A DNA stretch of 64,000 nucleotides from Cirrosporium novae-zelandiae (Eukaryota): contig JAPETS010000019.1 in NCBI GenBank assembly GCA_026023565.1, positions 1 through 64,000 on the forward strand, given 5' to 3'. Shown piece after piece: positions 9,136-50,200 of the stretch. The notes beneath the pieces were generated by a model. It was given only the letters and a program-made list of their open reading frames with translations. It searched no databases and was not told the origin of the DNA. Made by a program: the position numbers and the translations under genes. Each line of letters starts with the position of its first letter. Position 1 is the stretch's first letter.

Positions 9136-9241
9136 GCCGGGTTAGCTCAATCGGTAGAGCGTGTGGCTCTTAATTCCCGCTTGAATTCGCGGGTTGTAAG
9201 AGTTAACCTCAAGGTTGCGGGTTCGACCCCCGCATTCGGCT
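9136..9241 (+). tRNA. tRNA-Lys(CTT) with 33-nt intron (9173-9205)
   Basis: Acceptor stem GCCGGGT/ATTCGGC, D arm GCTC..GAGC, anticodon CTT at 9169-9171, T arm GCGGG-TTCGACC-CCCGC. Intron sits after position 37 and contains TAAGAG complementary to the anticodon loop. A T-run follows downstream. Confidence 0.93.
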
Positions 9242-21923: not shown

Positions 21924-22408
21924 TGTTACGGTTCCCTATTAGGTTAGGCCATTAGGGCATAGACCCTAGGCTCACCTTATAAGGTGAGCCTCCACCCTAG
22001 TCTAGGACATCAACCAATCTACATATCACCAGTCAGAACCTTGGGCATTTCCATGACCTGAGGCTCCCTGACAAGTGGTAGCATGACTGAGTTCGATCAA
22101 GGCTCACCCTGGTCACCAAGATCTTACTGATCTACCAGAAAGCTCGCTTTCACCACCAGATTTTGCCGTTCTTAGGGATTGACCTGAGGTTATATCCACC
22201 AAAATCAAGCATTTTCTGACTCCCACCTCCTCCCCCGCACTTCCCCACCACCACCAATTAGCTCATGGTTATCCATCTAGCTCAATATTCACCTTGAATA
22301 AGCTCTTGATTCCTAGGAATCTCGCACTTTCTACTCACTATCCCCTATCCAATCTACATATCACCAGTCAGAACCTTAGGTATTTCCATGACCTGAGGCT
22401 CCCTGACA
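21924..22408 (+). mobile_element. Internally deleted (TRIM-like) LTR retroelement: 150-bp 5' LTR, 3' LTR remnant, 5-bp TSD CCTAA
   Basis: 5' LTR 21924-22073 (TG...CA) followed by AGTGGTAGC (PBS-like TGG). Its last 60 bp recur at 22349-22408 with 2 mismatches. CCTAA flanks both ends (21919-23, 22409-13). Confidence 0.85.
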
Positions 22409-22587: not shown

Positions 22588-23836
22588 TTGAGGGTCTGGC
22601 AGGACTATTACCAAGAGGGGAATCGCTACAAATCATCAATTGATAACATTGTGGCAACCAAAGAATCTACCGAGGCGAAAGATTTCGAGGAGAACATTGA
22701 AATGTTGGATGTAGGAATGCGGATGAAGCCCCAGCCCCACCCTAGCCAACAATATTTTTTTTCTTTTGGGTGAGTGGACCAACCTGTCGCTGATGCTCCC
22801 CAAGCGTAAGTCCGACCTTCCGGAACGTGAGAAGCTGAATGAATTTCCGCCCATCCACAACCAATCTACAGAACAGCCAACATGTGCATATTGCAAGGCC
22901 AAATACCCCCAACTCTTCCAAGTGCAGATACCAGGCGGGAAACCGATGGTGAGAAGACCGTCAGACTGCTCGTTCTATGCATCCCCCACTGACATAGACA
23001 ACCGAATCCCGGTCCAAAACCAAAGGGAGCGGAACTGCCACGGAATCCGAGGCAGCTCCCCTGGAGGAAACACTGGGGGAGGAGAAACGCCGTGAAAAGG
23101 GCGGAAGAGAAGAAGGCTGCTCGAAAGGCGAAAAAAGCGGTCACCACCTTGAGGTTGCAGAAATGGTCGATTAACTTGTCCTTGTCCTTACATAGAAGTA
23201 TTACTCTGGTCTCTATATCAAAATCGCTTAACAAGGTTCTCATTGGGGGACTTACAATTCCCCAAGAAGCTATAAACAAAACTCGTGACAAGAAACCTTT
23301 CTGCCTCTTTATAGGGCCTCTCTTCTTATTCATTGGCCCAACCTGTTGATTTTTATGTTACAACTTTTCTTTGAGTGCTCATGGAGATTCCCGAGTCCCT
23401 TAATGTTATCGTGCAGACATTTGGCCTGATAGATTGCATGGGCCAGCTCATCGTGCCCCTCCTGTATATTCTCCACACCTGGCGCACCAACGACCGCGCC
23501 GTGGAGTATAGCAACACCTGAAAATTCATCTAGTAGGTGCTGTCCGCCGATTTAGGCGGAGACAATGACTATGAGAAGCTTAAGCTTGCGGAGGAGGTCA
23601 TCCAGATCCTGTTCGGCTAGCATTGCAGCAGACTGTTCTGGAAGGATTGTGCGGCCCGACCTTGGGCCGATGCCGCTACTGATCAGGAAATCCCCCCCGA
23701 CCCCAAGTTTAGTGAGGTTAAAGGCGACCGCTTCCGAATTAGGACCCTCCAACCCGGCTCTCATGCTCCTGGCATTGAGGGAGAGGATGAATATTCGCGG
23801 GACAAAGGTGAGGCGACTGGGGTTGCCCAAACATAA
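22588..23836 (+). pseudogene. Degraded ORF of unrecognised family (Cys-containing CAYCKAK segment; C-terminal EKLKLAE..LFWKxCAAR domain)
   Basis: Protein-like translation broken by frameshifts and in-frame stops. The C-terminal part 23573-23800 has a ~70%-identical paralog starting at 30738. Confidence 0.6.
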
Positions 23837-26764: not shown

Positions 26765-28950
26765 GGCGGATAATATCCCCCCAACAAAATTGCTTAGTCT
26801 AGCTTAAGGGGTGTCGGCTACTATTTTATCATCATCTTATCTTCGCCCTCATCCTCACCCGTGCCAACACTGCCGGTGGAGAATTGATGGCCGGTGACCT
26901 AATTCATGATAAGAGATCTCAAGCAGACAGCCGAGTAACAATCCAATACAATTGATTTGGTTTACTCTGGAAAGTGAAGATGGACAATAGAGATTCAATC
27001 ACAGCACCAAAATTGCTGATTCAAACTAGAAGGCCGGTGTCGATTAAAACCCCCGTCTTGTTGATTCAGCTGGAATCATCATCCAGATCCAATATCTCAA
27101 AGGGTGAAGTCACTAGGAAGCTTCTTCACCAATGATGCACAAGTCTCAAGAACCGAAATAACATCCCCCAAAGCGGCTTGTCGCTCGTTCCAAAAAAAAG
27201 GGCAAGGAATACCGGTTACGACTCTTATCCTCGTCATCCCCATCCTTATCCTCACCCGCCCTAACATTGCTCAAAGCTCCAGGTTCCAGTGGCTTCCAAA
27301 GGAATTGATGGCTAGTGATATATAACTTATAATATAAAAAAAACTTTCAAGCAGATAATTAAATAATATCCCCTCAACAAAATTACTATATTCTTAACCC
27401 GGGAGCCAGGAGGTGCCGGTTGTGACCTTTTTTTCTCTCGTCAATTTCAATCGTGCTGGTGTCGATATCCAGATCTAATACCTCGAGGAAAATCTGTAGG
27501 CCGTGGCCCGGGCCATAACAAGAAGTACCAAGCAACAAGCTCGTATCCCCAAAAGCCGCTCGTTGCCTAAGAAGCCAACAAAGCGTCGCAAGTGCGGCGA
27601 GTCCAAGGCACCCAGGGCTGCAGCCGAAGAAGCCTCCACGCCAACTGATGATGATCCTCCAAAGAGAAAATGGGGAAGACCAAGGAGGGCACCAACAATC
27701 AAGAAAGAAACTTCGCCAGATCCAATCTCTACTCATCATTCTCATCGTTTATTCTTAATCAGGAATGCCGGTTAGAACTCTTACCCTCGTCACTTTCATC
27801 CTTATTCTTGCCAGCATCCCAGGCATCCAATATCAATACCTCGAGGGAAATGTGTAGCCCGAGGACTAGGCTATAATAAGGAGTTCTAAATAAACAACCA
27901 GTTTGATCCTACAGCCACTGACATCTCAGCGAAAATAATTGGACCAGACGCCAAGGTACGTTAATTTTATGTTCTTGTCTAATAAATAAACTAAAGTTTA
28001 TTTTCTATTTAGGAGTCCTTATGGGCGATCAGCCTATTTGCGGAAGATCGATTATCCAATATAGAGTTGGATATCATGCGTGCGAACAAATCTTGACTGA
28101 CGATCGAAACATCGACTACTGGCATCTATATCAATATCGATATCCAACCTCCTAAAAGAAATCCGTGGCTAGTAACCTAACTGATAATAAAGAAATTTCA
28201 ATTACACTACAGAAGAACAACACAATCAGCCAAAATTACTTATTCCCAAATAGTGTCCGTTACACCCATCATCCTTTATCCTCATCCCCATCCATGCCAA
28301 CACTGCTGGTATCAATATCAATAATCTAAATTCAAATCTAATACCTCGAGAGAAACCGGTGATCAATGACCAACCCAATGTCAGACGAAGAGTTCCAAGC
28401 AACGAAATAGTAATCCTCCCTCAAAATTTCTTATTCCTAATCAAGGGGCTAAAGGGGTGCTGATTACACCCTTCCTTCGCTAACGTCCGCATCCATTCTC
28501 GTCCTCATATCTATCTCTGCCAAAACTGCTCTGCTGGAACCAATATTCAAAGCTCGAGTAGAAACACATGGTTCAGTCAGGGGTGGAAAAGGAAAAGATT
28601 TTTTTCTTCAACTGTTTGGTCTATCTGTCTGTCTGCTGTTGGGTCCGGCAGATATTCTCTTTATTATTTATTATTATATATACTTTTATATTATCGGTGT
28701 TGTTGGTGGCAAGATGCTTGCTGGATCCGCTCGTCATCGTTCGTCTTCATCCCCATCCGTTCCAACACTGCTCTGCTGGCATCAATTATCAATACCCATA
28801 TCAAACTTCAGATCCAGAGTTGAAGCTGTGTTTCTGCAACCGTTTGGTTTGTCTGTCTGTGAGGTCCGGTGGTTATTCCCTCTATTAGTTGTTATATACA
28901 CACAAAAGATTTTATTTGAGAGTTCTATGCTCTTATATTATCGTTGATGT
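26765..28950 (+). repeat. Degenerate tandem array A (irregular ~200-450 bp units, same orientation)
   Basis: Recurrent motifs: CCAACACTGC (26864, 28297, 28762; variants ~27260, 28520), AATACCTCGAG (27477, 27835, 28340), GAATTGATGGC (26881, 27302), ATAAYATCCCC (~26770, ~27158, ~27363). Confidence 0.7.
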
Positions 28951-29260
28951 GTTGGCTATTATATGCTCTCCTGACTACATCCGTTTTCCTCTTTCGATGT
29001 CTTTACCACTTCTTCCACATCTACTCATAGTACCGAAGTACCCACGTTGCGAAAACGTTTCCTATAGTTTACTGCATGCTTTCCAGACCAACATCCCAAT
29101 TCCCATCACTTTATCCATATCTACCTACTTTTACCCTTTCCATCCCATTCCTCCAACTCACACAAATTCTTATTTCTCTAACCTTCCATACAATCATCTT
29201 TACAATCCTTATTGCAACTTGAACCACAATTATCATTAGACGACAAAGTATATTACAAAC

Positions 29261-29887
29261 ATAGCTCCACCTAAGAAAACTGATGAACCATCTCAGCAAC
29301 CTCAGAGAATTTCTTAGAGGATTGCTGAACAACAGAAAAGCAAAAATCAACGTGCCAAATAAAATACGCAAAAACTATTTTCATCAAACCCTCAGATAGA
29401 TACACAGCAGCGAGCACTACCTATAGTAGCACTGGGCCGTACATACCGGAACATGGATCAGTTCACCCAGTACATAGAAACTCTGGAACCTGAACCGCGC
29501 TACCAAATGCAGCTGGCAGCGGCTGAATCATTAGAATCGGGAGCTATATACCTGGGCGACTAGGCGGACCTGCTATGGAATTACATTAAATTAGACACTG
29601 CTTGAACTAGGACTGGAAGAACATCGCAAACAGTAGAGGCTAACTTTTCAGAGTTACGAGAAATAGCCTCCCAGGGTCGAAATATCCAAAAACGACGACA
29701 GGAAGCTATCAGCAACATCGGTACAAAGTACAAAGACTTAGGCAAAATCCTTGAGCAACACAATCCAGAACTAGTGACCGGACCATACCTGAAAGCTTTG
29801 CGAGCTGTACTGCAGAAGAACTACCAAAAGGCTCGCCTATGGTGCGAAAACGACATCCTCACCCTTATTACGAGCTTTCTTTCTTAA
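29261..29887 (+). pseudogene. RIP-like inactivated 208-codon ORF of unrecognised family ((M)APPKK...LWCENDIL)
   Basis: Single frame from ATA (probable ATG>ATA) to TAA, with premature stops TAG 29315, TAA 29360, TAG 29561, TGA 29603. Intact ATGGCTCCACCTAAG start copy at ~34223; WCENDI copies at ~30199 and ~31333. Confidence 0.65.
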
Positions 29888-30731
29888 TAATATTCACTTC
29901 TTATTCTATCACTACCATCATGGATTATACTATTCAAACTTGCGCGTGGGGTTTGCCAGTGCCAGTTCCGAAAGAAGAAAATTATATTTTTTTGAATTAA
30001 GAATTAGTTTTATATATACACACATGTATAACAAAAAAGTTATTTGAGAGAGCGATATGGTATGGCTCTTATATGTTACTTCATGCTTTCCTGATCACAA
30101 TCTTTTTTCCCTTCTTTCTCCGTCTTTCTTAATCCATCATCCCTTATTTTTAAACTCTTCCCCGATACCCACACATCGAGCATCAAAAGACTCGCCTTTG
30201 GTGCGAAAACGACATCTTCGCCTCCCTAATAAGCTCTTTAGATCCGGTCATTCTTGCTCTTTCACATCATCTTGGATCTGGAACCTCCAAACCACAAAAC
30301 GCCAGATGGAAAACACGAATGGGCTTGCTTGTTTTTTTTTTTTGAATCATCGTGCTGATGCTGAGAAAGAAAGATTATAATCAAGATAAACTTTCTATGG
30401 TTATATTTTTTTCTTTTTTCTTTTCTTGTATTTCTTCTTCCATTTTTGCCTCTAGCACCAAGACCCGCGCAGTTATGGAAATTCGGGGAATGGATTTATT
30501 TTGCTTATTACATACAGTCAAGTAACGTTGCCAACCCTCCTAAAAAATCATACCACCGAACCAAAGACCCAATATCTACCTTAAAAATCATGCACACACA
30601 CATATATGCGTGCAGAAAGAGAATGTCTAAAAACTATAATCCCCCTTTTACCGTTAGCTTATTATTTTTTCAATATCTTTACTACACCCTCTTCGTCCTC
30701 GTCTTCCATCAAATACCAAAAGCTCACTAGT

Positions 30732-31013
30732 AACGACGAGAAACTCAAACTGGCGGAAAAAATAATCCAAATCCTATTTGGCTAATATGGTAGCCGGCTT
30801 TTCTGGAAGAACTGCGCCGCTCGACTATAGATCGACGCCGCCACCGAACAGAAGAGTCCTCCTGATCCTAAATTTAGTGGTGTCTAGGGCGAGCGTTTCT
30901 AGGTTAGGACACCCCAACCTGGCTCCCGCGCTCCAGGTGTTGGTGGAAAGGAAGAGTATTCCCGGTACTCTGGGGCAGCGAACGGCATTCCATTCAATAG
31001 CTATGTAGGGTGA
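30732..31013 (+). pseudogene. Second copy of the EKLKLAE..LFWKxCAAR..PPDPKFS domain
   Basis: Translates NDEKLKLAEKIIQILFG*YGSRLFWKNCAARL*IDAATEQKSPPDPKFSGV*GERF*VRTPQPGSRAPGVGGKEEYSR; ungapped match to 23573-23800. Confidence 0.75.
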
Positions 31014-32781
31014 CTGCAAATCGGGGTAAAGCAGTTGATAAGATCGTAGAACTCTACACTACACTACTCTACACTACATCACTGTCTGTGTGGACCCACC
31101 TTTATATGGATGGATTATAATGCACAGTACAGCCTCGGTTATCCTAGAATTACTTCCGAGAAAAGAAAGATTATATCACTAAATTGAAAATCAATTATAT
31201 AGTACGCAAAAGAATCCATTCGAGAGAGCTGTATGGTATAGCTCTTATATTACTGTTGAATACTTTCACTACAAATTTTCAGTTACACTCCATCCTTCCT
31301 ATCGTCCACCACCAAGAAGAACCCACGGTCCATGGTGCGAAAATGATATCTTCCCACACTGCATGCTTCCTCTCCGACCAGTGAGGGACGAGACGACCAA
31401 GGACATCCTAAGCGATCAAAGATTTTCCTATGCCTCTAACATTCTTGACAAAGAGATGAGAAGTACACTATACACTCGCGGCCAATTCGAGAATTAACTT
31501 CTGAGAGAAAAAAAAAGATTGGGTTATTGGAATTAAAAGTTAATTATATACTACCCAACAAGAAGTTATGCCAGAGCCATCACATCACGCTCTTATATTA
31601 TTTTTTTACTTTGCAAATATTAAAATCAACTTCACTTCATTTCATGCTTTCTCTATCGTTTGAGAGACGCTTCGTATAGCTCTTCTTTTCTTTCCTCCCC
31701 CTCCTTAACAATTGGAATGTGAGTTGCAATACCCATTATACCAACAAAAAATAAAGAGAAAGAGGTCAATGTTCCCAGATCTATAAAAAGCACACATAAC
31801 TAATCGTTTAAAATCATCCCCGATAAACGCGACACCAGACGCCCCACTATCGATAGGATATATAACCACCCTACTACTGTACGATATATATCTTGGTTTA
31901 AAAACTGGAGCATCCCTAGTGAACTTGGTTCAAGATGTCTTTCCTAGCTAAACCATTGAACCCTTCCTCCAGTACAATTTACAAATGAAGGGAAGTTTGT
32001 TGGTGGCACAACAAGGCTAAAGGACCTGACAAACCCACCTGCGCAAACTATCCAAGACCCAAGAAGGGAAAGGGACTAGTAATAAAGGTAAAGGCAGGGC
32101 CAAGGCGTACCTCAAGGCAGCCAAAACCTTTAGTTGGTTGGTCGCCTGGGCTATCGGCATGCCGAAAACCAAGAACAGGAAGATGGGTACGATCAACCTC
32201 AAGGATTCGTCACGACCACGAAAATGGTGGTTGGACTAACCAACCAACCTTGCTGGCTGAAGAATATCGAAATTGATTGAAAGTAATACAACTCACGAAG
32301 CTGGGACTTTTAAACTTTGTGTTACTTTAGGACTTCACAGAGATTTTAAAGTGGTTGCAAATGCCGTGCTTTATTCTTCATTCCTTTTGAAATTATTGGC
32401 AAAAAGGGTATGGAGGGTAAAACTCACAATTCTAACCAGGCACTTCATACCTTGAACCTCTTACAAGGTGCCGTCCTCTAAGGAAACGAAAATTTAAATA
32501 CAACACACAAAAAGATATTTTTATTCGAGATCTCTACATAATATGGCTCTCATATTATTCCGATGATCATTATTATTTCCCTGACACAACAAATAAGTTT
32601 CCATACGATCTTTCCCTTTCCTCTTGCTCGTTCTTTTCTATTATTTCTTCTCTATCTTTATTTTCTAACACTTTATAAAACTCTTCCGCGATTACGAGGC
32701 GTGTGTGTGGGTTTTGTTTTGTTTGTTTTTCAAAAAATAATACTAATTCTGAAAAAAGAGTATCTCTATCTAAGGATCTAG

Positions 32782-33277
32782 TGTTAGAACTTTAGTGTTT
32801 ACGGTCTTTAGTGACCGTTGGTAGAGTGATACCCTCATAGTTAAGTTTCGCTCAGCAATCCACAACAACAAACATATTCATCAATCAGTAAGATCATTGA
32901 ACTAAAGATCGATTTCGCTATTTCGCCTACGATGTATGCTCAATAATGTGAAATGACTACAGCTGGCCGATGATGGCCACATACGCTCACAATCTCGAGG
33001 CCAGTCGCCGCCCTGGGCGTGGAGAATCTTGGTGGTGCTGCTGGAAGATCTGCAACAAGTGCATAGTCGTCGCAGAGTAAGTGGGGTCGATGCTGGTAGG
33101 AGGCTACTTCGCCGCAGCGGGGGGGAGTATTCCTCCTTGGTGCTTCTCGCCAGAGTTATGATGGATATTGCTGGATTCTCACGAATCAGTCTCCCGTCCA
33201 TTTGCTCCGACTCGCTTTATTGATCTTCGCAATCATTGACCGAACAGGTGGTGCATTATAGCACCACACCATCTACA
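32782..33277 (-). mobile_element. Probable solo LTR (~496 bp) inserted in array B
   Basis: GC-richer insert bounded by TGTTAGA / TCTACA, with a TATA-containing hairpin GTGGTGC-ATTATA-GCACCAC near one end. Removing it restores ~290-bp array spacing. No TSD recognised. Confidence 0.4.
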
Positions 33278-33749
33278 CCTCCTAAAAATCCCACTATATA
33301 TGGATACAAAAGAAGTTAATTTGAGAGCTCGACGCTTTTATAAATCGTTGGTTATATTGCAACACAATTAATCAACCTCATTATATCCTTTTTCCCCAAT
33401 AATATCTTCTACTTCCCACTCGCTGGTTTCTTTTTGCCACCATTTCTATTTTTATTTCTTATACACAAAGCCCCTTTCCGATTCATTCGAAGCAAGGTGC
33501 GTGGGTGGGTGTGCTTGTTTGTTTTGTTGAATACTCCGGAGTAAACTCTAAGGAGGTTAGGTTAGATTACTGAATTACGAATTAATTATATAGGCAACAA
33601 GGATTTATCCGAGGGCTCTCTATGCTTTTTATAGGTTATCATTTTCTGATATTATAGCCAATTTCACCACAATCTTTCCAACAATATCTTCTACTTCCCA
33701 TTCTATGGTTTTTTTCCACCACTTCTATTTTTATTTCTTAACACAAGAG

Positions 33750-33904
33750 CAGGGAAGGGAATAGACCAGACTGACCAGACCCTAGGGCATATGCCCTGAG
33801 GCTCACCATATAAGGCGAGCCTCCCATTTAGCTTAGCACACCATCCAATACACTTATCACCAGTCAGACCTAGTCATTTATCCATGACCCTAAGCCCGCT
33901 GACA
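33750..33904 (+). mobile_element. Diverged solo-LTR relic related to the 21924-22073 LTR
   Basis: Colinear blocks TAGGGCATA..CCCT, AGGCTCACC..TATAAGG.GAGCCTC, TATCACCAGTCAGA, TCCATGACC, ending CTGACA. Confidence 0.75.
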
Positions 33905-36900
33905 ATATGAATGTGCTTGCTTATTGAATAACAATGCCACAATACTGAAGAAAAAAGGGTTATATCACCGGAGTAAGAATCAGTTATATATTACACAAAA
34001 AAGAATATATTCAAGGGGTCTATACTCCTATATTATCGTTGCTTGGTTGTTGTTATTATTTGCAACACTATAGGATTTCCATCTCAATCTCATTCCATTA
34101 CTCAAATCCCCCTTTCCTTACTCTCTCCTTACCCTATTCAACCCCTCACAAAAATTACTACTAAAGCACCGCTGCTTGTCATAACATATTATCTTATTCC
34201 ACAATCAAATAAATCAATCAATATGGCTCCACCTAAGGACAGTAGAAGCAAAAGTTCTGCCCCCTCAGCGTTTTTCAAAACGTATTGCTCCTCACCACAT
34301 TTTTTTATACCATTTCTTTCTTTTCTTCTCTTTTTTTCTCTACGCTTATTTTCGACCACTTCTTTCTTTCTCCTCTTTCCCCCACACTCATTTTTCCCTC
34401 GCACTTCTGCCATCCATTTCTAGCACCAAGTTCGGCGGTGCTAAAATGCGTGGGGTTTTCTTTGCTGGCTAGTTGAATACCAGAGTAAACTCAAAGGAAG
34501 TCAGTGAGACTTATATTATATAATTGAAAAATCAATTTACTCTCGAGAGAGCTATCATGCTCCTATATTAATATTATTATTGTTTTTGTAATACAACAAT
34601 CCTAGTCCCTCTATGCTTTCGAATCATTCCTTTTTTCCTTCCCACCCTCTAAGGTTATATATCATCAGACTAGAATTATCTTCACAGGAAATCCATTCGA
34701 GAGCTCTTATGGCAAGGGCTCCTATATTATTATTTATCTCTTGATTTTTGTTATTTGTTATTTTGCAACACAACCAATTCTTCCTTCCCTCCTATGTTTT
34801 TTGATTATTTCTCTTTTCTTTTTACCACCTTCAACCCCGATATCCCCAAACCAAAACCCTTTCGGGGTTGGAAAGTTGCTGGTTTTGCTGATTTCCTTTT
34901 TTTTTTCTATCAAGAGAAGAACACAACCGAACCTGAGGAAGAGGTAGATTCAACTGGTTGCTGCTCGATTTACTCGCTACCGCTCCAACTTCCTTGTCGC
35001 TGTTCTTTGCAGACGGACAGACTAGCGTTGAAAAAAAGAAGAAACTTTGATAGAAAAGAGCCCGCTGGTTTTACCCCACAGTTCCTAGGAGGAAAGTCGT
35101 GGGTCTCTGTCTGTGTCTGGTGTGTTATGCTTGTCTGTCGCCAAACACGACAGCGACAGCGATAACAAAGGCAAATACCAAAGAAACCAAAGGGGATTGC
35201 CACCATGAGGGAGGGGGTATCGACCCGATCGGTACCCTTATGTACCTTAGATACACTTGTGAGCGGTCCTTCATACGGTACCTGCATCAAGGAGGAGAAT
35301 CCAACAGTGTCGCAAACACCCTTGAAATCATCTATTCGGGTCGTGGTCGTGGTTGTGGTCGTGGTTATGGTCGTCCTGCTTACTTAAACAATATCCCTAA
35401 TGAAAAAAAGGGGGGGTTTTTCTTTTTAATATTATAATATCTCCTTCCTCGGACTGGCTCATTTATCCCCAAAGCATTCCTCTCAAATTTTCAATAAAAA
35501 CAACAACATTGGCTTTTACTTCGTGAGATGAGAAGCTTCTCTTCTGTGTTTACAGAAAAAGAAGAAGAAAAAGGCTTTTCTGGATGATGACGAGACTATA
35601 TTCCGTCTTTTGTGGATATTTATATATGTGAATTCTGGAGTTTGGAATACATCTTTCATGGATTGCTAAATAGAGAAAGCAGAGAGAGGGAGAGATAGAT
35701 TATCAAGAATGGATTTTCTCGCTCTACGAATTGTTCTGCCAGCACCTGCTACCTGGCTGGCTGGCTCTGTCACTCGGAAGCTTAGTTATCAAAGTTGGGT
35801 TTTTTCATGGTATTGATTGGCTGTTTTAGTTTTTTTTTTGGCTTTGTTTGATATATACGGTGGGGGGGAGGGTTTGGTTGGTTAAGTTCAAGACAAGAAC
35901 TTGTCTGACCGTGTCGTGTCATGTCCCTGTTGTGTTCTTTAGGATGCAGTTCTTGCATCGGGAGTTACACCGTTGTTGTCGTTGCAAGCCTGATGAAAAC
36001 TACAACAAAACGACAATCCTGGTGCAGCTAAAGCCGTGGACATACCGACCAGAGAAGATGTGATAACCCCATCGCTTCAGTTCAAAAATCTCCTATTCCG
36101 AAGAAGAAGAAGAGCAGGGGGGGATCATTTCCTACCGGGCGACAGCGTAACAATCTCTTTCATCTCACAACATAGTGTGGGTCCCATTCATCGGGAAAGC
36201 TACCGGGGGGGTGTCAGACACCCCCATATCCAAGCCTGTTGCTTGCTGTGTGGACTTCGGGTGCAGACCCTCCAGAAATTGGCTGGGGGTCTTTTGGAGT
36301 TTCCCTGTCATACGGTTTCTGGAAGGCAGGGAAGAAATTCAAGATTTATGGCAATGATCTCATGGCACTGATAGACCGATTCCTCGGAGGACAACATACC
36401 CCAACACCACACGAGCCATTCAGACCTCCACAACAATGGCGGCGGTTCTTAGATAGATGCATAGAATTAATGTAACCCGGGTGAGCCTGAACCACGCAAA
36501 AAGCTAATCGATGGGGCGTCGTGTCTGGAGCAAGAAAAACAGGTATTTAGATATTTAAATAGTATAACGATGGAAATTGATTCGCTAATTTTGAAAAAAT
36601 AGGATAGTTTGGCCATGATCTTTTGGGGAAAGATAGACATGCGTGTGTGGACAACTAAGAGAAAAAGGGTTATTTGCTATTGTTTATCTTGATGGTTTAG
36701 CAGAGGAGGGGGAGGAATAGGATGGTGGTGACGATGTGGGTTTGAACTGAGCTTGTTTACTAATTCTCTCTGGGAATTTTACTACTATGTGTGTTATGGA
36801 TAAGGGGGTTTTGAGAGAGGGGGAGTATTGGTGATGACGGTGGTGGTGGGGTTCTGATATATATTCATATACAACGATTATGAACAACAGGTACTCCATA

Positions 36901-36964: not shown

Positions 36965-36991
36965 GTGTGTGTGTGTGTGTGTGTGTGTGTG
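36965..36991 (+). repeat. (GT)n microsatellite
   Basis: Directly visible. Confidence 0.9.
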
Positions 36992-47205: not shown

Positions 47206-50200
47206 TGATAGCAAACACATGGGAATTAAAATAAACATGTAGATCAAGCTCAATGAAAATGCCAATTAATTAAACCGCCCCCCCTGCTGATTGAGGCTCG
47301 GATACGCCGCCCAGTACCCAACATCAAGTCCAAAGGTTACATATAACACTTTTATCATATTACTTCATAATTCTTATTATCGTTTACACAAATATTAGTA
47401 AGTATACGCAATTTCTTACGCACACTAAACATTCTCAATTTCTTCAGCCCTTCAATGAATAAAATTGGTTGATTTTTATTATATTCCGTGTCTGTTACGG
47501 AGTAGACTAGTCGTCGGTTCTATGACTTAGATATCGTTGCCCCCCGCTGGTAACAAGCGGGTAGTCTAACCACGGCATTTTGGCTTAGCAACAGACTACA
47601 AGTCAACATCTAGCTTTCCCCGTGTTCGGTGTTCAATCAGTATGGGGGGTAAAAGAAGGGATCCCCTGCCAATTTTTCGGCACAAATAAAGTCAGTCGGT
47701 TGATTTTTATTGTTGTTCGTGTCAATCAGTGCTGATGACCGATAGAAGGGGTTCCGGTACTACGCAATATGACTTGGTGGCACAGCATGCTTCTCCGTGG
47801 ATAACAGTGAAGTCACAGCTTTAGTGACAAGGGTCTAGGATCTTTTTTTTTTTTTTTTTTTTTTTTTTGGTTTTGTAATACGCAAATATATAATTGAGGA
47901 TTTTTATAGGAGCTCATTCCTTCGCTGCTTTGAAGTATTGGCTACCGGATCATGTTCATTCTGTTTAGATATTGGAGGGACTTACTATAACCCTAATATT
48001 TTTTTTGTATCGATACTTTGCTTTCTAGTCACACAAGTGTGTCTAGTTTTTTCATGCGCTGCTTAGAGAACCCGTACAATTTCATCGAGTGTATAGCCAA
48101 TAGGACTCCTTAATGACCCCGTATTCACTAGGTGAGAGTGGCGCTGATAAGTTTACGTGGAATTACAAGGTGACAGATATCATTAAGCATATCAGAAAAT
48201 CCTTAAAAAGAGCCTCAAAATGGTTTTTCGGCTGCTCCGGCCGGAGGTGACCAGCCAATCACAAGCCAAGCCACACTTAATACCAGAGGTTTATAAGGGT
48301 AACCAGACAAAAACTGCAGAGCATTAACTTCAATTTCAGTGAAGTTTTATTAATATCGCACCATAGTCGGGCCAAATACATGAGGCGTAGTAGAATTTAG
48401 GTACCACAATAAAACCATATATGTTTGCATTTATATAGTCAAGCTCCGATGTATTTTACTATTATAATTGAATAATAGTATAACTGTAGCACACCTGAGG
48501 AGATAATGCTTAATTGAAGCACAACTAAGTCTCACCGTTTGAAAGTTACTTATAGATTGCAAGGATTCTTAATCCTTCATCTGAAGGACAGGACGAGGTA
48601 TGAGATGTCCATGCTCCTGGCGAGCTGTGGCAGCCTTTTCCTCCTGAAACAATATATCGTATGCAGAATTACCCTCGCAGTTATTGTTATAAAGGAAGGC
48701 GCAAGGGGGGTATACGAACCTACCTCTATAACGACGAGGGGGTTTAAGAATAGTATAAAAGGCCTTAAAGGGCCAACAGAAATAGAATCAATCAAGTCGT
48801 TCGCCAAGAAATCATAATAGTTATCAATTCCACGTATGAACCCATTGTCAATGTTCAGTAAGTGTTTTCTGCAATAGTCATAAGGCTATCGTGCTCACAT
48901 TCTCAAACAGATATCTTGCAAGAGATTTATTTTGACCAGCCGTCCCACACCACCACGCTCTGTTCATTCTATCGATTGAGATGGAGTCTAGGCTCGACGA
49001 TCTGAGCGAAACTCCAGATAGAAACTTAGATGCTATTGAAAATCGGGGGACTTCCTCGGTAGACGAAATTGGTTCCATAGGCAAGGCTAAGTTGGCCAGA
49101 CAACTTTCATCCATAAATGCGGAACCCAACTCCAATACACTGGCAGTCGAGGGCGAGCAAATTAAAGCAAACGAAGATATTATCCTTGATGAACAACCTC
49201 GACAGAATGAGCGCATCACCAGCATGGACCTATTCCTTAGCGAGTGGTCAATGCACTTTGTAGATCTTGGCAAAGACAAGGAGGAGGCCGGTAAGGTACA
49301 CCATAAAAAACGCGAGAGAACAAGAAACCAGGATCAGCCGAAGAAAGGCAGAAATAAGGATCCGCTCAGAAGTAGGTCAATAGCAGCCAACTTTCCAAGG
49401 TTTCGCTCTTTTCTGTATCTTGATATTTTTCTCTAGGGCATGGTTCCAGCTAACTAGAGTATAGAGCATATGCAAAACGACAACAAGTCAGATGATCTTC
49501 GAGGAATTGGATCTTTGTTCAGAAGTCATCCTTTTGGGGGATATAAGTGTTAGATTTAAGTGATAAGAGAGAATCAAGCAGTAATAGATGTTAGATGATT
49601 GTTTTGTTGAGTGTGTAGAATAAGAAAAAGAATTATTTCTGTCAAACAAAAGCAAAGGTACACAAGGTCTAACCAAATTTAGACTAGTCTGTACTCCACC
49701 AAGTTCATCACCAGCAAACAAAATCCTACCTATAACCACCTAGGTATATTCCATTCACAATGGACTTCATATACGATGTGCTATCTCTTACCTTTACATC
49801 AGTCTACCTATGTAGATGGGTATTCAGCCGCAGCTCTTCAGTGTATCTAGCAACCACCAGCAACCACCAGCAACCACTAGATGCTACTCCTTTTCTTCGC
49901 CATCGTTTGACTGTTCTGGGGGCACTTTCCAATTGACCAATCACCTTTACGATTATTTCTCGTCTATTGATTCTTCAGCAGTGTATTCCGAAGGTTAGTG
50001 AATAAAGGATTTAGAGTATATGGATCAAACAACACGGAAAACTGGAGCTGGCAGATGACAAACTGCATATTATTATTATTGAAGAAGAAGAATAAGCAGT
50101 CCGCTCCTTAAGACATTACCAACAAGCGCAAGTCTTTGACATTTAAATAGAAGATCCGACCTTAGCCGGAACTTAAAAAATAGCAGACGTGAAACCCCCA

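Follow-up and report, generated by a model that had tools for sequence, protein, structure and literature searches.

The stretch of DNA analysed here (positions 1 to 64,000 of contig JAPETS010000019.1 of Cirrosporium novae-zelandiae, hereafter the window) carries a repeat family, termed array B, made of ten cores of ~110 nt each, all lying on the + strand between positions 28869 and 34751. The window is eukaryotic and fungus-like, with housekeeping open reading frames (ORFs) broken up by short gaps; the genes recognised are a sugar transporter (in three pieces), a GST, an SDR, a DEAD-box helicase and the methyltransferases FtsJ and COQ5. Array B is located inside the largest gene-free zone of the window (21.8–38.3 kb, 16.5 kb in length), which has housekeeping genes on both sides. 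The guanine-cytosine (GC) content of the zone is ~0.40 versus 0.44–0.49 in the genic flanks. Up to ~32 kb the + strand is rich in C (GC skew about -0.19 at 24–32 kb), the skew turning to +0.17 at 36–38 kb with the cumulative-skew minimum near 36 kb. When 123 stop-to-stop ORFs of at least 55 aa from 21.8–38.5 kb were compared with Pfam, 3/123 gave a match at E<=0.01, all far below the curated cut-offs; no credible domain, no recombinase and nothing gag-like was found among them.

The anchors of the ten cores are spaced by 1136, 1176, 348, 957, 788, 290, 400, 535 and 159 bp. A search for GCTCTTATATTA with up to two mismatches retrieved 11 + strand matches in the window, eight of which coincide with anchors listed in the initial annotation (28929, 30065, 31241, 31589, 32546, 34024, 34559 and 34718), while one of the other three (28682) falls inside a core-deleted copy described below and two (13788 and 38047) are unrelated. 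The remaining two anchors, at 33334 and 33624, are diverged forms picked up by the profile search. The motif GCTCYTATATTA, with at most one mismatch, was found seven times against 0.82 expected, a count reached in 0/100 shuffles, and all seven matches are on the + strand and within the array. A profile built from the ten copies and run against the window with nhmmer gave ten matches, all on the + strand (E 2.8e-19 to 1.4e-11), the next one having an E-value of 8.6; this search is circular, since the copies themselves built the profile. In the leave-one-out search, which is not circular, all of the omitted copies were regained (10/10, E 1.6e-12 to 0.031), seven of them below 1e-4 and three at 0.005–0.031. 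The latter, copies 5, 6 and 9, are barely recognisable. Nothing outside the array scored below E 1.8 when the leave-one-out profiles were run against the rest of the 64-kb window, and iterative nhmmer seeded with the full 295-bp unit led to a shrinking model and to no additional units.

Both the at least ten co-oriented copies and all nine spacings of the initial annotation were thereby reproduced, and the scan it had proposed with a hidden Markov model of the core, run here on the 64-kb window, places the family at the array B locus only. Its exclusion of CRISPR also agrees with our data, the spacings being 159–1176 bp and the array repeats 50–70% alike. Core-pattern matches were also retrieved at six loci in metagenome contigs; they agreed with the profile only over the pattern itself (model ~66–122, E 0.004–1) and were judged to be due to chance. 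Extra, very decayed units within the long intervals were considered by eye and dropped, as they had no profile support.

Head-to-tail copies of a short unit of ~290 bp, running AB, core, F, make up the array, and on its left side there are longer variants that carry a further module, H (Table 1). Module AB, upstream of the core, is GT-rich and reads GCGTGGGG..TTGAATAC..AGTAAACTC.AAGGA. Module profiles place it in six positions (29938, 30309, 32695, 33494, 33899 and 34440), the CT-rich tail F at 30382, 32581, 33373, 33659 and 34291, plus a weak occurrence at 34778, and module H (..GGTGCGAAAACGACATC..) at 29027, 29817, 30179 and 31308; the E-values of these AB, F and H profiles are circular. On the right side, AB-core-F units abut at 33252–34060 with a period of 290 bp, and two F tails (33396–33468 and 33678–33746) share 86% identity. 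The motif order originally described for the unit is found entire in few units; most of them lack one part or another, AB and F being confined to the positions given above and an exact TTGCAACAC following only 3/10 cores.

To the left of core 1, array A consists of very diverged, co-oriented units of sequence ..CATCC..CCAACACTGC..GGT..ATCAA.. By single-sequence nhmmer, the unit at 28262–28491 matches 26840–27052, 27234–27431 and 27436–27553 (E 6.6e-5 to 1.7e-6) and also 28731–28830 (E 7.4e-6). The last array A units share homology with the sequence immediately preceding core 1, thus arrays A and B form one continuous tandem zone, spanning overall ~26.8–34.9 kb. Not all units of this zone retain a core. 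The unit at 28499–28701 reads ..TATATAC/TTTTATATTATCGG, with the GAGAG..CTC part gone, and the unit at 30309–30486 gave no core match with either the ten-copy or the leave-one-out profiles.

Table 1. Features of the tandem zone and its inserts, in order of position (window coordinates). The nhmmer E-values of the cores are those of the ten-copy profile.
Feature	Position	Strand	Evidence
Array A, older ~200-240-bp units grading into unit 1	26840..28733	+	single-sequence nhmmer
Extra unit, palindromic core part deleted	28499..28701	+	matches 28734-28966, query 8-215, E 2e-13
Core copy 1	28869..28966	+	nhmmer E 2.2e-13; leave-one-out E 9.4e-8
Module H' (TGCGAAAACG piece) after core 1	29027..29082	+	E 5.6e-8, circular
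Decayed ORF P0001 (MAPPK), truncated pseudogene of an orphan fungal-type family	29261..29881	+	frame, HMMER, BLASTP
Module H at end of ORF frame (..RLWCENDI..)	29817..29891	+	module profile, motif count
Module AB before core 2	29938..29988	+	E 1.8e-4, circular
Core copy 2	29973..30102	+	nhmmer E 1.3e-14; leave-one-out E 4.1e-5
Module H after core 2 (= last ~32 ORF codons)	30142..30253	+	tblastn, module profile
Unit with AB then F, core unrecognisable	30309..30486	+	AB 30309-30379 E 8.8e-13; F 30382-30486 E 1.8e-11 (circular)
Copy of 23568-23816 (frame end and 3' flank)	30733..30981	+	69% over 249 nt, E 3.6e-35
Core copy 3 (best profile match)	31155..31272	+	nhmmer E 2.8e-19; leave-one-out E 1.6e-12
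Module H after core 3	31308..31394	+	module profile, motif count
Core copy 4	31507..31617	+	nhmmer E 1.9e-12; leave-one-out E 5e-6
Unique ~840-bp interval, including the supposed gag-like frame 31989-32273	31618..32458	.	no window match
Core copy 5	32459..32579	+	nhmmer E 9.4e-16; leave-one-out E 0.031
F then AB, after core 5	32581..32764	+	F 32581-32699, AB 32695-32764
Unique ~490-bp insert, AB to core 6	32765..33251	.	module map; no window match
Core copy 6	33252..33362	+	nhmmer E 1.4e-11; leave-one-out E 0.0056
F then AB, clean head-to-tail junction; cores 6 to 7 = 290 bp	33373..33567	+	module profiles
Core copy 7	33547..33654	+	nhmmer E 1.7e-13; leave-one-out E 4.7e-6
Module F, unit 7	33659..33750	+	module profile
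LTR-like (long terminal repeat-like) fragment	33783..33905	+	vs 21953-22074: 77.6% over 125 nt, E 5e-17; also 22349-22408
Module AB and core copy 8	33899..34060	+	nhmmer E 9.3e-17; leave-one-out E 8.3e-9
Second ORF-start copy (ATGGCTCCACCTAAGGA, MAPPK..), behind CT tract	34223..34261	+	start-motif count, translation
F then AB, after core 8	34291..34509	+	module profiles
Core copy 9	34477..34593	+	nhmmer E 1.8e-12; leave-one-out E 0.0053
Core copy 10	34647..34751	+	nhmmer E 2.1e-14; leave-one-out E 6.4e-5
Weak last F; right end of array	34778..34870	+	module profile E 0.021

Between cores 1 and 2 lies the decayed ORF P0001, which the initial annotation had listed as a MAPPK cargo and which is borne out here, both as a frame and by a second start at 34223. 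The frame has 207 codons with four in-frame stops, and ATA at its start where the second copy has ATG; the other two + frames, over a slightly longer stretch (29255–29900), contain 15 and 13 stops. P0001 was translated with X for stops and submitted to a full HMMER search against 1.84 billion representatives, where the sole match was P0002, a protein of 609 aa (E 2.4e-5), with P0001 residues 55–169 aligned on P0002 18–132. BLASTP of P0001 and P0002 gave 33% identity over 102 aa, with the stops X101 and X115 facing Q and W, respectively. Stops of the TAG/TGA type opposite Q/W are as expected from single transitions in a once-open frame. A relative of P0002, P0003 (927 aa, 57% identical), likewise detected the locus (tblastn against the window, E 1.1e-5). 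Both are unnamed hypothetical proteins and are the only two members of this orphan family in a collection of 5.8 billion clusters.

In the window the family is represented by its N-terminal ~115 residues only (tblastn), the remainder of the 609-aa P0002 beyond residues 18–132 not being found there. Pfam gave no match for P0001, P0002, P0003, P0004, P0005 or P0006, a word-indexed protein search with P0001 gave none either, the ESM Atlas returned no usable match with P0002, and of 128 pattern matches to P0002 relatives in metagenome contigs, none was confirmed. As judged from its homology and its interrupted frame, the decayed ORF at 29261–29881 is a truncated pseudogene of the P0002/P0003 family, so that what the array keeps of this orphan family, which has two known members, is a dead 5' fragment.

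Pieces of the same ORF recur elsewhere in the array. The start motif ATRGCTCCACCTAAGRA is present twice in the window (29261 and 34223; 0.00 expected), the second ORF start lying 200 bp downstream of core 8. The last ~32 codons of the ORF (P0001 residues 175–206) are repeated behind core 2 (tblastn, 48% identity, E 1.9e-4), and TGCGAAAAYG, with 0.2 occurrences expected in the window, was found four times: once at the end of the ORF and once behind each of cores 1, 2 and 3. Both ATG positions are preceded by a pyrimidine-rich tract (best 40-nt window 0.82 at -147 and 0.88 at -116), and CT tracts stand before true ORFs of the window as well (GST 0.85 at -111, SDR 0.80 at -94, MFS 0.78 at -124). 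Gene-proximal CT tracts on the plus strand are among the features known from Aspergilli (PMC3730340). TATA-like blocks, pyrimidine tract and ATG are found on the same strand in 2/10 units, which resembles the layout of filamentous-fungus core promoters as far as outlined in the same source (TATA-like box, plus-strand pyrimidine tract, ATG), and the CT tracts lie at similar distances before some real ORFs of the window. Unlike such promoters, 8/10 units have no ATG remnant.

Conservation was compared among modules. Pairwise global identity, with gaps counted, was 0.577 for the cores (45 pairs), 0.587 for F (15), 0.552 for AB (15) and 0.602 for H (6), with a shuffled baseline of 0.52–0.55. On the same unit pairs (10 each), the core scored 0.560 versus 0.600 for F, and 0.556 versus 0.543 for AB, and between units 6 and 7 the tail has a far higher identity (0.78) than the core (0.50). 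The ~110-nt core thus does not appear generally better conserved than the surviving AB and F, and divergence looks close to uniform across modules, in a comparison lying near the noise floor. Most of the variable spacer sequence is non-homologous and reflects insertion or deletion.

Uniform decay was also simulated in 300 runs with ten copies evolving by substitutions and indels on a star tree over a 125-nt core window, the simulated copies being realigned with the same MAFFT settings and their mean column conservation matched to the 0.628 observed. Of the simulations, 1/300 reached the best 13-column block (0.838), 8/300 the column variance and 23/300 the best 45-column block; the best 22-column block (120/300) and the number of columns >=0.9 (78/300) were unremarkable. 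The best-kept blocks of the core are TTATATA (0.886) and GCTCTTATATTAT (0.838). These two TATA-like blocks show a modest local excess of conservation; they are low-complexity sequence, which mutation bias or slippage could keep or regenerate. The earlier statement that the core is better conserved than its spacers holds in part only, for these two blocks, the core as a whole being about equal to AB and F. Near-uniform module divergence and a single locus window-wide, named beforehand as signs of simple neutral tandem decay, are largely what was found, with the two blocks in excess of it. The option of an old satellite or tandem decay, also put forward at that time, is supported by co-orientation, head-to-tail order and the leave-one-out search.

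Repeat-induced point mutation (RIP) was considered as a cause of the decay and rejected. RIP is recognised by a high TpA/ApT and a low (CpA+TpG)/(ApC+GpT) with respect to the surroundings. The indices of array B are 0.91 and 1.16, respectively, with no specific signature, and several genic 2-kb windows are similar (e.g. 0.94/1.10 and 1.08/0.95).

On these grounds we favour, as the probable though by no means certain explanation, that array B is a non-functional, decaying tandem duplication of the promoter and 5' region of a gene. The ancestral segment would have comprised the 5' part of a P0002-like gene with the region upstream of it, in the order GT-rich AB, AT box, GAGAG..CTCTT inverted repeat with a TATATTA box, pyrimidine-rich leader, ATG and coding sequence. 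Unequal crossing-over would have multiplied this segment head to tail, and deletions would have removed the coding part from most copies, leading to the ~290-bp short unit, which would have been amplified in turn on the right side. Pieces of other repeats, one of them LTR-like, would have been inserted at arbitrary positions of the array, and all copies would then have drifted to near saturation. The core would be the promoter-proximal part, retained in most units. For the blocks TTATATA and GCTCTTATATTAT, the simplest reading is that they are remnants of the ancestral core promoter, and the slight excess of conservation in the core would be either a relic of past constraint or a compositional effect. 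Both the former promoter role of the core and the order of duplication and deletion events are what we infer from the arrangement of the modules. If so, the two best-kept blocks provide a concrete candidate core promoter for the P0002/P0003 family.

Several observations weigh against this explanation. The ORF body (residues ~20–175) was found by tblastn in one unit only, thus an older satellite could have received the gene fragment by insertion. The evidence for the second ATG copy is a match of 17 nt, and the alignment of the 5' leader around it is weak, with no BLAST match at E<0.05. The homology with P0002 stops near residue 169, so that the shared ORF end may be unit sequence read in frame. 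Module identities are close to the shuffled baseline (0.52–0.55), which leaves the comparison of modules with little power, and the excesses of the 13-column block (1/300) and of the column variance (8/300) would fit present-day constraint too. Furthermore, the evidence comes from one locus in one 64-kb window, and profile searches found the core element upstream of no other gene in the window.

The first of these points introduces the main rival, in which an old non-genic ~290-bp satellite came first and a 5' gene fragment was inserted later and partly re-duplicated, the core having no promoter history. Such an origin, which we hold to be unlikely while deserving attention, would account for the ORF body in a single unit, for the two H copies flanking the ORF-bearing segment (29027–29082 and 29817–29891) and for the end of the P0002 homology ahead of the shared H piece. 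Moreover, the short units run head to tail cleanly with no coding remnant, and array A extends the repeat leftward without ORF traces. It is less easily reconciled with the ATG motif, which is found again, in unchanged orientation, downstream of core 8 and of a similar CT tract, with the ORF-end piece, present in three further places, or with the best-kept blocks being TATA-like and upstream of both ATG positions.

The block excess bears on another reading, that the core is a cis-element under present selection, i.e., a candidate binding site marking a chromatin domain, a replication origin or a regional centromere. Indeed, the best 13-column block and the raised column variance exceed uniform decay, the zone at 21.8–38.3 kb has no credible Pfam-bearing ORF, and the GC skew changes sign near 36 kb (from -0.19 to +0.17). 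However, at least two units lost all or half of the core (28499–28701 and 30309–30486), the three copies with leave-one-out E of 0.005–0.03 are barely recognisable, the whole core is no better kept than F or AB, and the TATA-like blocks are of the low-complexity kind that mutation bias or slippage can maintain, making this reading improbable in our opinion. A narrower form of it, with the TATA-like blocks and GAGAG..CTCTT under present selection as a binding-site cluster organising the 16.5-kb zone (small regional centromere, origin or boundary), is compatible with the skew turn near 36 kb and with the 13-nt block excess, and we regard it as slightly more doubtful still. If true, such a cluster would be an element type undescribed in its lineage.

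The core contains an inverted repeat with arms GAGAG(C) and (G)CTCTT, the element being written GAGAG..CTCTTATATTA, which the initial annotation had described as semi-palindromic. The arms pair in the minimum-energy RNA-model fold in 8/10 copies, with several G-U pairs used. The DNA hairpins are weak (-0.6 to -5.0 kcal/mol, z +0.5 to -4.3, with z <= -2.6 in 3/10 copies); copy 5 forms a different one, and copies 6 and 7 essentially none. In the main register of the alignment of cores (A1), 85% of cells pair versus 84% in shuffles obtained by permuting the 3' letters among sequences, with 221/500 shuffles equalling or exceeding the observed value, and 0 pairs are changed on both sides. An alternative register is 70% paired versus 69.5% in shuffles, with one double change, and some copies pair in shifted registers of the low-complexity GA and CT arms. 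As the paired fraction is at shuffle level, the pairing is explained by conservation of two low-complexity arms. The semi-palindrome is thus retained as a pair of arms able to fold in RNA; it is weak as DNA and shows no covariation.

The eight RNA folds and their G-U pairs might be taken as evidence of small structured RNA genes, or of a hairpin-bearing transcript leader kept for its fold. We consider this hardly credible, with pairing at the level of shuffles in both registers, no double change in the main one, and pairing achieved through shifted registers; Rfam, in addition, gave no match to the core at E<=1. A heat-shock-element-like reading of GAA..TTCGAGAG was dropped by eye, the spacing being off with respect to the consensus.

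Two of the intervals between cores hold repeat-derived inserts. The sequence with EKLKLAE, reported earlier as a domain, is borne out as a copy of 23568–23816; the two lie on the same strand and each consists of the frame end ..EKLKLAE..IQILFG(stop) followed by similar 3' sequence. Their identity is similar across several frames, giving no sign of coding constraint, and neither had a Pfam match. Where the initial annotation spoke of LTRs, one LTR-like fragment was found, at 33783–33905. The related repeat at 21925–22074 ends with ..CTGACA and is followed two bases on by TGGTAGC, presumably resembling a tRNA-iMet primer-binding site, which we take as a lead only; 22014–22073 and 22349–22408 are 96.7% identical over 60 nt and represent the youngest duplication seen in the window. 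The intervals at 31618–32458 and 32765–33251 had no match elsewhere in the window, and the second had none in Pfam. The gag-like relic claimed at 31989–32273 is unsupported, this frame having no Pfam match at E<=1 and only E 0.06 in the comparison with the frame at 22727–23092.

As a whole, the cargo is made of a truncated pseudogene and fragments of sequence found elsewhere in the window, with no intact genes. According to the module map, inserts sit at five different points of the unit (behind H, behind F, and at the AB-core, F-AB and core-F junctions), and three successive units carry no cargo (33252–34060). These variable positions and cargo-free units argue against site-specific cassette insertion. 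The initial annotation had offered as an option a repeat-delimited cassette array with the core as a site-specific recombination site, and conserved, co-oriented cores do part intervals of differing content; yet with inserts at five places with respect to the core, three consecutive cargo-free units, broken or fragmentary cargo, no recombinase domain among the 123 ORFs of the zone and no covariation, we find this option extremely improbable. The likeness to bacterial integron cassette arrays with attC hairpins consists in an imperfect palindrome repeated in one orientation between variable intervals. Unlike integrons, the locus is eukaryotic, with no integrase, no fixed insert site and no intact cargo genes, and in its palindrome pairing is conserved no further than the sequence itself. 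Variable intervals separated by a conserved semi-palindromic core have the look of a cassette system, yet here ordinary tandem duplication, deletion and insertion explain them, which calls for caution with similar loci.

The repeat debris in the zone, together with the inverted repeat in the core, could also suggest a cluster of short non-autonomous mobile element insertions, such as solo LTRs, miniature inverted-repeat transposable elements (MITEs), short interspersed nuclear elements (SINEs) or Helitron ends, the latter being defined by a CTRR end. Against this stands the single orientation of 10/10 copies, which has a chance of 0.002 under independent insertion. No copy occurs in the other ~58 kb of the window, the units abut head to tail with common flanking modules, and alignment A1 shows no conserved CTRR end or other terminus behind the hairpin. 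A mobile origin is accordingly very improbable. Our results speak against present-day function as well as against a mobile cluster, RNA genes and a cassette system, the last three having been tested directly.

Among known systems, array B is closest in kind to degenerate tandem duplications or minisatellite-like arrays with pseudogene fragments, with which it shares one-locus, co-oriented, head-to-tail units, high divergence among copies, internal deletions, later insertions and one disabled gene fragment. It differs from them in that the unit family and the orphan gene family at its source have no description in the sources searched. Satellites with retroelement fragments, as in pericentromeric or gene-poor regions, are similar in being tandem arrays within a gene-free zone with an LTR-like fragment; here, in contrast, the array covers only ~6–8 kb with about 10–12 very diverged units, and has no evidence of homogenisation save the one pair of F tails at 86%. 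Array B is real but ordinary, an apparently lineage-specific tandem array in heavy decay that contains a pseudogene fragment together with repeat debris.

Some minor features of the window are unrelated to the array. An Rfam tRNA match of 106 nt at 9136–9241 (49.3 bits) is presumably intron-containing; ARAGORN, run on the window, reported none. At 36965–36991 there is a perfect (GT)13.5 microsatellite, and at 47843–47868 a 26-nt poly-T run.

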